Below are positions 15,940-40,633 of a stretch of 64,000 nt of DNA, in pieces (the stretch's first letter is position 1; each line of letters opens with the position of its first letter). The notes under the pieces were generated by a model that saw only the letters and a list, made by a program, of their open reading frames with translations, was not told the origin of the DNA and made no database searches. The stretch spans positions 160,001 through 224,000 of the forward strand of contig JBMNFY010000017.1 of NCBI GenBank assembly GCA_050949565.1, given 5' to 3'. The position numbers and the translations under genes were made by a program. This DNA comes from Kiritimatiellia bacterium (GTDB lineage Bacteria; Verrucomicrobiota; Kiritimatiellia; RFP12; UBA1067).

Positions 15940-15988
15940 GTGGCATGGGCGTCCCGCCCATGGAACACGGGCAAGATGCCCGTGCCAC
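15940..15988. repeat. Inverted REP doublet (REPIN-like)
   Basis: GTGG-CATGGGCGTCCCGCCCATG, a GAA spacer, then the reverse complement of GTGG-CACGGGCATCTTGCCCGTG. Confidence 0.8.
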
Positions 15989-15990
15989 AC

Positions 15991-38136: not shown

Positions 38137-38420
38137 AATCCTGTCAATCACGTCAATCACGTCAATCCTGTCAAAAATTGGTGTGCGGTGACAAGAGCCG
38201 CACTGTGCGCGGACGGCGGCTCGTGAGGACACTCGCCCTCCAGTGCTATGTCTGGGCTCGCGGAACGCCGGGAGGGACAAGTGTCACTTGTCCGCGGACG
38301 AGCAGACGCTCGTCCCTCCCCAGCGGTGGCCACGCCGCCACCCCGTAAAAAATCTCTGCGTCTCCGCGCCTCTGCGTTAAAAAACTCTCAACTCTCAACG
38401 CTCAACTCCCAACGCTCAAC
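38137..38420. repeat. Composite intergenic repeat hub
   Basis: (AATCMYGTC)x4 at about 38137-38173; REP-like units at 38183-38242 shared with the 10.4-10.5 kb hub; inverted doublet GGAGGGACAAGTGTCACTTGTCC / GGACGAGCAGACGCTCGTCCCTCC at 38271-38319; CTCAACK heptamers at 38385-38420. Confidence 0.8.
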
Positions 38421-39440
38421 TTTTTGCGGGCGGGAACGCCCACCTCCGGCTGCAACCCGCGCAACGCCTCATCCGGCACAAACCCCGGGAACGCGGCGAA
38501 CGCCGCATCCACCACGCGCCGATACTCATGCACCGTGCGGCACACGCGCACGCCCTTCCAGAGCCGCTCACCGCCGACCAGCGCTTGATGCAGATAACTC
38601 CACAGTTCCTTCATGCGCCCCAGTACCGCGGCCGGTCCGTAAAGCTCCTCCTCGCACGCGGCCAGATAGTCATCCAGAAAACCTTTGAGCCGCATCGCAT
38701 CACGCGGCGGCGGCGTGTCCGTCGTCAGACGCGCAAAGACAAAGGGATCGATCGCCGCAGCGCGTCCGACCATCCAGCGCGTGATCTGCGGGAAGCGCGC
38801 TTTAAGCTGCAGGAAATCCGCGCGCGTGCGCAGATCGCCATTGTAGACCACGGGATGGCGACATGTGGCGAGCGCTGCGGCGAACGCCTCCACATCCACC
38901 GTCCCCTCATACATCTGCCGCGCGGTGCGCGCGTGGATCGTGACCTCCCGCAACGGGAAAGCCATTGATCACCGCCATACGCGCCAACAACAAGTCAGGA
39001 CGGTCAATGCCCAGCCGCACCTTCACTGAAAAGCCCTGCGGCAGTTCCTCGCAGCCGACCTCCAGCATACGCGAAAAAGCCGCTTCATCCCGCATCAAAC
39101 CGGCACCGCGCCCTTTGCGGACAATGAACGGATACGGGCACCCGGCATTGAGATCGGCGCGGGTATATCCCATCGCCTTAAACGCCCGCAATAGCGTACG
39201 CAACTGATCGGGATCTTTACCGATGACCTGCGGCACAACCGGCACGGACTGTCCTAATTCGGGATCGACATCCTTCAGCAGCAGCGGCTTGATTTTCGCG
39301 CCCGCGAAAGTCGGAATGAACGGCGCCACCGCACAGTCAGGCGGCGTAAACCAAGACGCCTGCAGATTGCGAAACGTCCTGACCGTGACCCCGCGCAGCG
39401 GTGCCAAGCAAAAGATATCGGGCTGTACAAGGTCAGACAT
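38402..39440 (-). CDS. tRNA-dihydrouridine synthase family protein, one frameshift near 38955-38960
   Basis: LAPLRGVT, DLNAGCP, GAGL, SVKVRLG in the first frame; TIHARTARQMYEG, YNGD, MVGR in the second. Confidence 0.85.
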
Positions 39441-39550
39441 GGGGTCAGCATATCAAACCGACCGCAGGGAACCAAGGCTGCAGCGCAAACGGCCGCTGGC
39501 CGTTGCGCTGAGTTAGGATTTAGGATTTAGGAGTTAGGTGCATTGTCCGG

Positions 39551-39578
39551 ACGGACGTGAACGTCCGTGGCCCGCCAC
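39551..39578 (-). repeat. REP element downstream of RAYT
   Basis: Minus strand GTGG-CGGGCC-ACGGACG TTCA CGTCCGT hairpin. Confidence 0.8.
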
Positions 39579-39617
39579 GCCAACGCTTGACGGAGTGGGT
39601 TGTATACAGTTCGCGTT

Positions 39618-40538
39618 TCAGTTTGAGCCGGAGGCACGCGGCGATGTTAAAGCAATGGCTTGAGCCCAGCGGTTGTTGCACAAGCAGTTCTCGCGGCGCG
39701 GTACCGCCTCCTCTGTATCGGGGAAGCCACTGAGTGCAAGCGTCAGGCCGGATGCGAGCCGTTCTGCCGCCGCGTGACCATGTGGCTTGTAACGCGACAG
39801 CCCCCACGGGTGCAGGTAGATAAGCCGACTGCGGGAGATCGCCGCTGCTTCGCGCGCCACCCGACGCTCGCCCGGCGAAATGAAACCGCCGATCAGCACT
39901 GCGCCCTCGCGAGCCAGCTCAAGAAACCGCGCAACCACCGCCTCCAGTTCTTCGCCTTCCAGCCGTCGGGAGATGATGACCGGCTCCAGCCAAGGGTAGT
40001 CTAACAGGGTGCGGTCGCCGTAGGCCGTCCACCGTGTTTCAGGTGGCAGACGCGGATGGACGACATCCGTTTGCTTGGCGAACCACTGCGGATTATCTTG
40101 CCGGAGTTGCCAGCGGCGCGGATTGTCACGCACGTAGTCGGCAAAGACGTTGAATGTCGCGGAAGTGAAGGCGACAAAGTCATGAAAGCCGGCCTCCCAT
40201 ACGCTGAGTGCCGGTGCGTTTTTCAGTCGCCGGATGGCCTGGCGGGAGCGGGCCTTCATCCGTTCGACGATCTGCGAAAGCGAGTAACGGGCACCGCCTT
40301 TGCAAACCAAGATGCCGTGAAAGTGGTCGGGCATCACCACGTTTATACGGAGGCTATAAGCTGGATCGTCAGCGGGTATGCGCTGCCACGCCTCTACCAC
40401 CGCCCGGCCTTCTGGGAAAAGCTGGATACGCCCATCTCGAATTTCTGACAGCAGCGCACGGCGCGGCGCAGTGGCAAACGTGATAAAGTAGTAGCCTTCA
40501 CCACGGTAGCCATGGGTTTTGAGGCGGGCAAAGTGCAT
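39618..40538 (-). mobile_element. REP-associated tyrosine transposase (HUH/Y1) fused to a DprA/SLOG-like C-terminal domain
   Basis: GYYFITF, VVMPDHFH (HUH), VWEAGFHD, DYVRDNP (catalytic Tyr). C-terminal YGDRTLL...GAVLIGGFISPGE...NCLCNN resembles the DprA Rossmann-like fold. Confidence 0.85.
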
Positions 40539-40553
40539 GGTTTCGGCTCCTGT

Positions 40554-40581
40554 TCAGACGTGAACGTCTGTGTTCCGCTAC
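40554..40581 (-). repeat. REP element upstream of RAYT
   Basis: Minus strand GTAG-CGGAAC-ACAGACG TTCA CGTCTG hairpin, same orientation as 39551-39578. Confidence 0.8.
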
Positions 40582-40633
40582 ATAAAGGGCTCAGTTTGGC
40601 GTCGCGGATCGTGGCGGCTCACCGCCGCCATCT

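Follow-up and report, generated by a model that had tools for sequence, protein, structure and literature searches.

A RAYT-type HUH nuclease joined to a truncated DprA-like domain: an apparently undescribed protein family with hairpin-flanked members in Kiritimatiellia and related bacteria

A stretch of 64,000 nucleotides (nt) from a Kiritimatiellia bacterium (GenBank assembly GCA_050949565.1, contig JBMNFY010000017.1, positions 160,001 to 224,000; called the window below, its first letter being position 1) carries on its minus strand a gene for a two-part protein of 306 amino acids (aa). The N-terminal half is a HUH/Y1 nuclease of the type found in RAYT (TnpA_REP) transposases, which accompany repetitive extragenic palindromic (REP) sequences. 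The C-terminal half has, by its model and its sequence profile, a DprA fold that stops short of its last third. The first-pass annotation of the window, made from its letters alone, had placed the open reading frame (ORF) at 39618-40538; this position is exact, on the minus strand. The gene and its parts are as follows.

39618..40538, minus strand: ORF P0001, two-domain HUH/Y1 plus DprA-like protein, 306 aa (whole-protein AlphaFold2 model)
40089..40538, minus strand: HUH/Y1 (TnpA_REP/RAYT-like) nuclease domain, residues 1-150 (NF047646, Pfam Y1_Tnp, structure alignment)
40317..40334, minus strand: codons of the HUH metal-binding motif, M69-P-D-H72-F-H74 (homologue alignments)
40119..40136, minus strand: codons around the catalytic tyrosine, Y135-V-R-D-N139-P140, with the class-2 signature Y---NP (alignments, text of PMC6006769)
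39648..40091, minus strand: predicted truncated DprA-like Rossmann domain, residues 150-297, the first ~145 residues of the ~205-residue DprA fold (separate fold model, structure and profile searches)

The AlphaFold2 model of the whole protein had a mean pLDDT (predicted local distance difference test) of 93.5 and a pTM (predicted template modelling score) of 0.85. Every motif quoted in the first-pass annotation, both the RAYT set and the C-terminal set, was found in the ORF: MPDHFH (residues 69-74), WEAGFHD (114-120), YVRDNP (135-140), YGDRTLL (173-179), GAVLIGGFISPGE (212-224), LIYLHPWG (239-246) and an NxxxNN motif, N284-C-L-C-N288-N289, which lies in the last modelled helix (residues 282-297). 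Across 54 aligned homologues the invariant residues were M69, P70, D71, H72, H74, Y135 and N139 in the N-terminal half, and G174, L179, G212, S221, E224, L267, C285 and N289 in the C-terminal half. A broader set of 240 two-domain relatives, many of them only 27-40% identical, kept H72, H74, Y135 and N139 in 237 members each; in the C-domain the counts were 233/240 for S221, 239/240 for E224, 238/240 for N289, 200/240 for K251, 228/240 for P252 and 197/240 for C285. The motifs are therefore not chance resemblances.

The N-terminal half was recognized by two library models. NCBIfam REP_Tyr_transpos (NF047646) matched residues 13-152 at E=1.6e-15 (57.3 bits against a cut-off of 80), and Pfam Y1_Tnp (PF01797) matched at E=0.0038 (17.8 bits against a cut-off of 23); by these models the protein is a distant member. 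Pfam and NCBIfam scans of residues 151-306 gave no match. With the C-terminal half unmatched and the N-terminal half under cut-off, library scans alone would leave the question of a fusion open. Structural alignment was more informative. Aligned with VIA-align, the model matched IS608 TnpA (2a6m_B) with Z 12.8, a root-mean-square deviation (rmsd) of 2.2 and 103 aligned residues, and E. coli TnpA_REP bound to REP (4er8_A) with Z 12.4, rmsd 5.6 and 135 aligned residues. The TnpA proteins of IS608 and ISDra2 were the best structural matches of the N-domain (Z 11.3-12.8), and the family profile also found ISDra2 TnpA by sequence (E=1.9e-6). The text of Quentin et al. 2018 (PMC6006769) describes Y-x-x-x-N-P as common to all class-2 (TnpA_REP-like) members of TnpA_Y1, whereas class 1, the IS200 type, has Y---Q. 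The DHFH, W-E and YVRDNP motifs of our protein resemble those of TnpA_Y1 subclasses 2.2 and 2.5. The N-terminal half is thus a RAYT-type HUH/Y1 nuclease with both catalytic motifs intact, as the annotation had proposed.

The C-terminal half was assigned by fold. With the whole model as query, the first Foldseek match was H. pylori DprA (HpDprA, 4ljr; E=9e-7, 24% identity over 151 columns). The C-domain was also folded alone from an alignment (A4) of 31 diverged locus-encoded proteins, a procedure that depends neither on Foldseek nor on the N-domain. This model (pLDDT 93.7, pTM 0.89) was aligned to 48,161 representative chains of the PDB. Only four chains reached Z>=8, and all four belong to the DprA family: ShosA (Z 13.0, rmsd 2.9, 139 aligned residues), HpDprA (Z 11.0, rmsd 3.5, 138 aligned), SpDprA (Z 10.7) and RpDprA (Z 9.3). 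The next tier consisted of 2iz5 (Z 5.6), 1rcu and 1t35 (both 5.2), LOG 5ajt (5.0), YpsA 2nx2 (4.8) and TRPM5 (4.8), that is, of a molybdenum cofactor (MoCo) carrier protein, LOG-type proteins, YpsA and TRPM N-domains, at Z values usual for common arrangements. DprA, LOG, YpsA, the MoCo carrier protein and the TRPM N-domain are grouped in the SLOG superfamily, whose common Rossmann-like fold has a glycine-rich loop for nucleotide binding; the last four bind nucleotides or cofactors.

Sequence comparison agreed with these matches. A profile of the C-domain found HpDprA (E=6e-7) and SpDprA (E=4.2e-5) among PDB sequences, the next match being at E>=0.3, and the HpDprA match spans both ssDNA (single-stranded DNA) motifs of DprA. 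The profile of the whole protein found DprA at E=1.8e-5. Pfam PF02481 (DprA/Smf) gave nothing at E<=1 on the 306-aa protein, and touched 1/31 family C-domains (E=0.068). The ESM Atlas placed the C-domain in unnamed clusters (scores 0.88-0.90); another cluster (score 0.80) had PF02481 in 19% of its members, which we take as a lead only. Because the structural matches and the independent sequence profile agree, the C-terminal half is assigned, by model and profile, specifically to the DprA branch within the SLOG-type folds. The earlier call of a DprA/SLOG-like domain at residues ~150-306 was therefore confirmed, and narrowed.

Structural alignment of this domain covered residues 8-153 of HpDprA (ending at 152/153 of ~218) and 70-218 of SpDprA, and our protein ends 9 residues further on. 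The published ssDNA motifs of DprA are G-S/T/A-R (HpDprA G50-R52) and F/L/Y-x-x-R-N/D (HpDprA F140-N144) in the text of PMC3950713, and the basic ssDNA-binding residues given for DprA and ShosA in the text of PMC12961424 are R52, R143 and R170. The first motif aligned to I189-S190-R191; its glycine is lost, and its arginine is present in 31/31 proteins of A4 and 169/240 of the broad set. The second aligned to C285-L-C-N288-N289, where the asparagine is kept. The DprA equivalents retained are thus R191 (R52) and N289 (N144), together with a family-invariant S221-x-x-E224 loop, and near-invariant residues of the family's own (S221, E224, K251, P252, C285) surround the DprA-type pocket. The protein probably still has a base-binding pocket of the DprA kind, for DNA or for a free ligand.

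A free ligand would suit a different role for the domain, that of a sensor for a nucleotide or base, or of a SLOG-type enzyme, which would gate or complement the HUH nuclease; the first-pass annotation had named a nucleotide-sensing fold that gates the nuclease as its alternative. The most conserved C-domain residues (S221, E224, N289 and C285) are polar and not basic, only one of DprA's three basic ssDNA residues is left, and other SLOG members form the next structural tier. Against this, the domain is far nearer to DprA and ShosA than to the LOG type (Z 9.3-13.0 versus ~5), and its sequence aligns with DprA over both ssDNA motifs with the equivalents of R52 and N144 kept. We consider such a sensor or enzyme unlikely, and favour a contact of this domain with DNA.

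The two-domain arrangement is widespread. A word-indexed search returned 128 proteins at E<=1e-3 (8,000 candidates scored), many of ~300 aa, covering 94-100% of the query at 41-97% identity; the few with names were annotated as 'REP element-mobilizing transposase RayT' or 'hypothetical protein'. Among 1.84 billion cluster representatives, scanned in full with phmmer, 10,290 matched at E<=1e-3 and 1,918 at E<=1e-10. Among 269 retrieved proteins, 206 had both domains, 30 the N-domain only and 7 the C-domain only. The two-domain matches from named genomes, among those listed, came from metagenome-assembled genomes (MAGs) of Lentisphaerales, Victivallales, Kiritimatiellia and Verrucomicrobia, one Neomarinimicrobiota MAG and some unnamed bacteria, and the listed matches with the HUH domain only from Pseudomonas, Xanthomonas, cyanobacteria, Bacteroidota and others. 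A taxon scan confirmed at least 487 of at least 601 pattern matches. The fusion is a large family, found mainly in uncultured Kiritimatiellia, Lentisphaerae and Verrucomicrobia. Of 41 related genomes, 34 had at least one match at E<=1e-5, and the most in any one genome was 12. It had been allowed earlier that the C-terminal region might lack a DprA/SLOG fold, or that the fusion might be an assembly chimera absent from other genomes; neither is the case.

The source genome (G000) holds four further family copies. Because copies within one genome are only 23-68% identical, with no near-identical pairs, they appear to be old paralogues and not products of recent transposition. Four pairwise comparisons of intact copies gave ratios of nonsynonymous to synonymous substitution rates (dN/dS) of 0.10-0.16 over the whole gene, 0.08-0.15 in residues 1-150 and 0.12-0.19 in the remainder, which indicates purifying selection on both halves. 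A quick maximum-likelihood tree of the HUH domain alone, with SH-aLRT (Shimodaira-Hasegawa-like approximate likelihood-ratio test) support, had 91 rows (63 two-domain, 28 single-domain; L099 and L115 were dropped as ambiguous). The two-domain label changed twice on this tree, versus a mean of 24.1 in shuffles, none of 500 being as low; the starred branches force only 1 change, and the backbone is poorly supported. One single old fusion event is possible on this evidence. PHROGs gave only a transposase family (E=0.29), and no neighbour gene was conserved across 37 family loci.

Two observations concern individual members. One Lentisphaerales MAG contig carries two of them (L059 and L060) 3.4 kb apart, each ~60% identical to the query. 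The protein of paralogue L002 (G000:C9) is 97% identical to that of L019 (G029:C8), from a genome of a different family within the order, which suggests recent horizontal transfer.

The gene in the window is bracketed by short repeated elements, listed here with their surroundings.

39551..39568, minus strand: downstream (3') hairpin, ACGGACGTTCACGTCCGT on the gene strand, in the 25-nt repeat 39554-39578 (repeat and four-copy alignment)
39569-39580, minus strand: counterpart of the 5' extension, beside the downstream hairpin (84% identity over 25 nt)
40555..40570, minus strand: proximal upstream (5') hairpin, CAGACGTTCACGTCTG on the gene strand, in the 25-nt repeat 40557-40581; ends 16 nt ahead of the ATG (repeat and four-copy alignment)
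40571..40582, minus strand: 5' extension of conserved sequence, GT(R)GCGG-N, single-stranded, before the upstream hairpin (invariant columns of the four-copy alignment A3)
40612..40630, minus strand: distal upstream hairpin, TGGCGGCGGTGAGCCGCCA, with oppositely oriented apex; kept in the relocated copies of G016 and G010 (orthologue comparison)
39513..39538, no strand assigned: heptamer tract of CCTAAAT type, 3.7 units, beginning 14 nt past the 3' hairpin; a genome-wide repeat that is not peculiar to this element (repeat count)

The 12-mer GACGTGAACGTC occurs exactly at 39554 and 40557. At one mismatch it had 7 sites in the window versus 0.57 expected; the other five were rejected as parts of the element, having nothing in common past the core. 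The two flank copies form a 25-nt direct repeat (84% identical). We aligned both flanks with the upstream regions of the orthologues in G016 and G010 over ~45 nt (A3). On the gene strand both the 5' extension GT.GCGG and, after it, the CGTTCACGTC of the hairpin were invariant in this alignment. The gene is thus bracketed by two direct copies of a ~45-nt element consisting of a GTRGCGG extension and a hairpin with a CGTTCACG apex. For this gene the earlier label of REP-associated is true only narrowly: it has its own hairpin element on both sides, but no further copy of the element is present in the 4.66-Mb genome. Rfam gave no match to the hairpins at E<=1. As terminators or promoters the hairpins were rejected: there were no promoter-like sites, and two terminator-like sites lay off the hairpins and were no more than in shuffles.

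Two other repeats of the source genome were seen along the way. Another small REP-like family, CTGTGG-GCGGCGTTCACGCCGCC with a second hairpin after it, has ~11 copies on contigs C8, C10 and C17 (e.g. C17:682222, 880748, 1170104), and only the CGTTCACG apex in common with the hairpins around this gene. Heptamer tracts of CCTAAAT/CCTAACT type occur at 94 places, and at dozens in each same-genus genome. Short tandem repeats as family-specific neighbours were rejected (within 150 nt of 11/35 loci versus 149/600 control ORFs; Fisher p=0.42).

To extend the comparison to the family, the best ungapped match between 200 nt upstream and 200 nt downstream was scored in both orientations for 35 loci, with 1,190 cross-locus pairs as control. 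L025 (a duplicate of L050) and the truncated ORFs L039 and L049 were left out of the flank, tandem-repeat and conservation counts. Ten of the 35 loci scored >=13, above the 99th percentile of the control (12), where ~0.35 would be expected. The matching flanks were direct at L001 (the locus studied here), L004, L017, L040 and L047, and inverted at L013, L022, L044, L048 and L055; the repeat sequence varies from locus to locus. The first-pass annotation had proposed looking for conserved flanking hairpins in homologous fusions, and these ten loci have matching repeats of their own, while the rest stayed at background.

Some paralogues are accompanied by larger sets of repeats. L004 of the source genome is bracketed by a 142-nt direct repeat, and its hairpin was found at 20 distinct sites on 8 contigs (0 for the reversed-pattern control). 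The L004 orthologue of G014 (76% identical) has four such hairpins within 5.5 kb around the gene, three being a stem variant of its own with compensatory changes and one the G000 variant. The window also contains REPa (15940-15989; G000 C17:175940), a 50-nt element like a perfect palindrome with a predicted hairpin of -36.8 kcal/mol. The source genome has 181 copies of it by BLAST and 137 at <=3 mismatches; G002 has 74 and G004 130, it is present in G035, and it is absent or nearly so in the other same-genus genomes searched. The distance from REPa to paralogue L002 is 56 nt, and to L003 299 nt. REPa may be the repeat that goes with L002, although two cases fit this poorly: G029 has the 97% identical protein without REPa, and G004 (78% complete) has REPa with no such gene found. 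Some members of the family are REP-associated, and their repeats have multiplied to different degrees: this gene has just two private copies, another member has about twenty, and much larger numbers are possible.

The position of the gene was compared among related genomes.

39478..40632, no strand assigned: segment replaced by unrelated sequence at the syntenic site of same-genus G001, G003 and G006; its right edge, 40632, is the end of the block common to the relocated copies (genome comparison)

The same-genus genome G002 is syntenic here (93% identity over 3.6 kb). At the same site G001 has ~100 nt of unrelated sequence and no such gene, and G003 and G006 have a small unrelated gene; similarity in all three resumes at the MlaD stop codon, ~40632. 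In G016 and G010, of other genera, similarity is confined to L001 1532-2512, that is, window 39652-40632 (83-84% nt identity). This common block comprises the gene and ~95 nt upstream, including both upstream hairpins, and its flanks are unrelated. The fusion protein is 90% and 89% identical in G016 and G010, versus 82% and 81% for the neighbouring ABC ATPase and 72% and 76% for MlaD, and the ABC ATPase and MlaD genes of these genomes are on contigs other than that of the fusion gene. The location of the gene has changed between genera. Because similarity resumes at the very point where the block common to G016 and G010 ends, the comparison suggests that a unit starting at ~40632 was relocated or horizontally transferred. 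The bases before the common block differ in G000, G016 and G010, so that no conserved target sequence was seen at the 5' boundary.

The gene has as neighbours an Mla transporter operon and a Dus gene. The latter, the downstream tRNA-dihydrouridine synthase gene (38402-39440, minus strand), is split in two overlapping ORFs (Pfam Dus 2-135 and 154-259), an apparent frameshift or sequencing error. The small gene in the slot syntenic to 39478-40632 in G003:C187 (L029) and G006:C59 (L031) encodes a ~125-aa hydrophobic protein, which, judged by eye from its sequence, we take to be a putative CrcB-like fluoride channel. This intergenic slot is a hot spot of gene turnover. The locus itself turned up in DNA runs belonging to 8 or more studies (digesters, biogas, landfill, sludge, litter, bioreactor), and may have its source in some of them. 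The gene is also covered by contigs from the RNA libraries of 3 studies, one contig bridging into the upstream MlaD gene. This is only a hint of transcription; ordinary read-through expression would fit, and DNA carry-over is possible.

Taken from sequence and models, we think it fairly likely that the gene encodes a hairpin-directed ssDNA nuclease and strand-transferase of TnpA_Y1 class-2 type, in which a DprA-like ssDNA grip replaces the short RAYT tail. E. coli TnpA_REP is described in the text of PMC3479197 as a monomer in which the part following G152 forms a tail that contacts the guide bases (5' GTAG) and is inhibitory to cleavage. The replacement of the tail is proposed because the DprA-like domain begins at ~residue 150, where that tail begins, and because the flanks carry a conserved 5' extension. 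On this proposal the flanks would become single-stranded, for example at a replication fork, and the HUH domain would bind the hairpin and cut nearby through a 5'-phosphotyrosine link at Y135. The C-terminal module would hold the adjacent single strand, with a base inserted in the conserved pocket (R191, S221, E224, K251, C285, N289), and would do the work of the E. coli tail in contacting the guide and in regulation; it may either set specificity or hold a second strand. From time to time the gene would then be excised or relocated together with its hairpins, and some paralogues would spread REP-like hairpins.

Several results weigh against this proposal. The RAYT and Y1_Tnp models both score under their curated cut-offs. 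We infer ssDNA binding by the C-domain from its model and sequence, and against it stands the loss of R143 and R170: the R143 position holds N (97), L (85) or M (41) among the 240 relatives, and the R170 region (R170/R261 in DprA/ShosA) lies in the missing part of the fold. Neither flank element has a further copy in the assembly, the hairpins are small with unexceptional folding energies (z -0.5 to -2.2), and 25/35 family loci are at background within 200 nt. No excision or joined forms were seen in 3 RNA-library runs and 1 DNA run, searched as contigs, which drop rare forms. The copies in G016 and G010 are without the downstream hairpin and that of G002 without the proximal upstream one, so the two-hairpin layout is not needed to keep the gene. 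There are also signs of decay. In G004 (L012/L028, G004:C61) a ~455-bp deletion, equivalent to window ~39533-39988, removes the 3' hairpin and the C-terminal ~120 residues (from ~185) and leaves a 191-codon frame with the HUH domain; its junction lies in the heptamer tract. In two RNA-library runs from different studies (X15, X16) one base is missing at 40329, in codon P70 of the HUH motif, which shifts the frame; the DNA run X6 has the intact form.

Such decay would be expected if the gene were a domesticated or relic host gene, with nothing moved at the locus, a role in host ssDNA processing or impending loss, and hairpins that are mere leftovers. The age of the within-genome copies fits this as well, a pattern also given for class-2 TnpA_REP genes, which occur as diverged and not near-identical copies (text of Quentin et al., PMC6006769). 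So do the undispersed hairpin, the orthologues short of one or the other hairpin, and the RNA-library coverage, with the reservation on DNA carry-over made above. Against this, the gene is patchy within the genus, lies at a different locus in other genera and is better conserved there than the housekeeping genes that flank it here; the flank repeats are strongly enriched across the family, and both domains are under purifying selection. We therefore regard domestication as improbable.

The first-pass annotation had also suggested that nicked ssDNA is protected and handed to RecA. A recombination mediator that loads RecA is suggested by the nearest folds, DprA (text of PMC3950713) and ShosA (text of PMC12961424), both of which bind RecA. 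Dimerisation is required in DprA and in ShosA, and the text of PMC3950713 places the beta8-alpha8 dimer interface around Leu186 of HpDprA and describes the SpRecA-binding residues as overlapping it. This last third of the DprA fold is missing from the 306-aa protein, whose domain stops at about HpDprA residue 152 of ~218. Because the domain ends before the dimer interface and keeps only part of the ssDNA motifs (of the three basic residues, only the R52 equivalent, R191), the RecA hand-off is unsupported; the genome also has its own full DprA (C10, 250.8 bits to PF02481). We consider RecA loading very unlikely. A part in anti-phage defence, by analogy with the DprA-like antitoxin ShosA, the best structural match of the C-domain, has the least to commend it: PADLOC matched neither the whole protein nor the C-domain, and because no neighbour gene recurs across the 37 loci (here the neighbours are the Mla operon and Dus) there is no ShosT-like partner.

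Returning to the hairpin-directed nuclease, a more specific form of it may be considered, which we hold as a tentative and rather doubtful extension. The family could be an unclassified ancient subclass of Y1 HUH enzymes in which a DprA-derived ssDNA clamp replaced the inhibitory tail; the HUH domain would hold the hairpin, and the DprA pocket a second strand. If true, this would answer how the one active site of a monomeric RAYT performs strand transfer, a point left open for TnpA_REP in the text of PMC3479197. It would also explain the seeding and spread of private REP families across bacteria of the PVC (Planctomycetes-Verrucomicrobia-Chlamydiae) group.

REP and REPIN sequences are among the most abundant bacterial repeats. 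To our knowledge RAYTs are the only candidate engine for them, the mechanism of their spread is unsettled, and only the small E. coli RAYT has a structure. A catalytic core permanently fused to an ssDNA-binding fold would be a natural experiment on the extra DNA contact that is needed, and the DprA fold would gain a use besides those in RecA loading and in ShosTA defence. Since each copy comes as a small protein (~300 aa) paired with a short hairpin of its own, the family might also provide orthogonal, sequence-specific ssDNA-tagging enzymes (HUH tags).

A class-2 Y1 HUH transposase (RAYT) joined to a truncated DprA fold is apparently an undescribed family. The words DprA, Rossmann, Lentisphaerae and Verrucomicrobia are absent from the main text and two text supplements of PMC6006769 (figures aside). 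Our full-text literature searches, with most subscription journals outside their scope, found no description of a RAYT/HUH-DprA fusion, in line with the statement of the first-pass annotation that no functional description was known.

Compared with known systems, the protein shares with the TnpA of IS200/IS605 elements (IS608, ISDra2) the best fold matches of its N-domain, and the locus has similar subterminal hairpins, direct on one strand. TnpA of these elements is an obligate dimer with active sites in trans. The text of PMC6006769 gives as criteria of class 1.1 Y-x-x-x-Q, a high copy number with near-identical copies and a frequent tnpB partner. Our protein has Y---NP and an extra domain, and the family has neither near-identical multiple copies nor, over the 37 loci, a conserved tnpB-like neighbour.

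With DprA/Smf (PF02481) and ShosA the C-domain has in common the first ~145 Rossmann residues, the 'GD..LL' lead-in and the equivalents of R52 and N144. It differs from them in being without the last third of the fold and the dimer interface, in its unconserved R143 position and absent R170 region, in having neither a SAM nor a winged-helix domain, and in being fused to a nuclease.

Two TnpA_Y1 subclasses also carry additions to the core, and neither is REP-flanked according to the text of PMC6006769: subclass 2.1 (TIRYT; 238 aa) has helix-turn-helix (HTH)/DnaA_C tails and NHxH, and subclass 2.3 (325 aa) has NHYH, core insertions and a 61-aa distal domain. They resemble our protein in combining a class-2 HUH core with a conserved C-terminal module, thought there to mediate DNA or protein contacts. 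Our protein has D-H-F-H, a different added fold and hairpin flanks.

The closest likeness in the N-terminal half is to RAYT/TnpA_REP itself (4er8; class 2 of TnpA_Y1 in the text of PMC6006769), with the HUH motif, Y-x-x-x-N-P, the Y1 fold, low copy number, diverged paralogues, patchy distribution and hairpin repeats beside the gene. REPtrons have inverted REPs, whereas the flank repeats are direct here, and a dispersed REP population is lacking for this gene. Quentin et al. 2018 (PMC6006769) give lengths of 151-213 aa for the REP-associated subclasses (151-194 aa in Table 1), whereas this protein is twice as long at 306 aa, with a domain of ~150 aa that is predicted to have the DprA fold.

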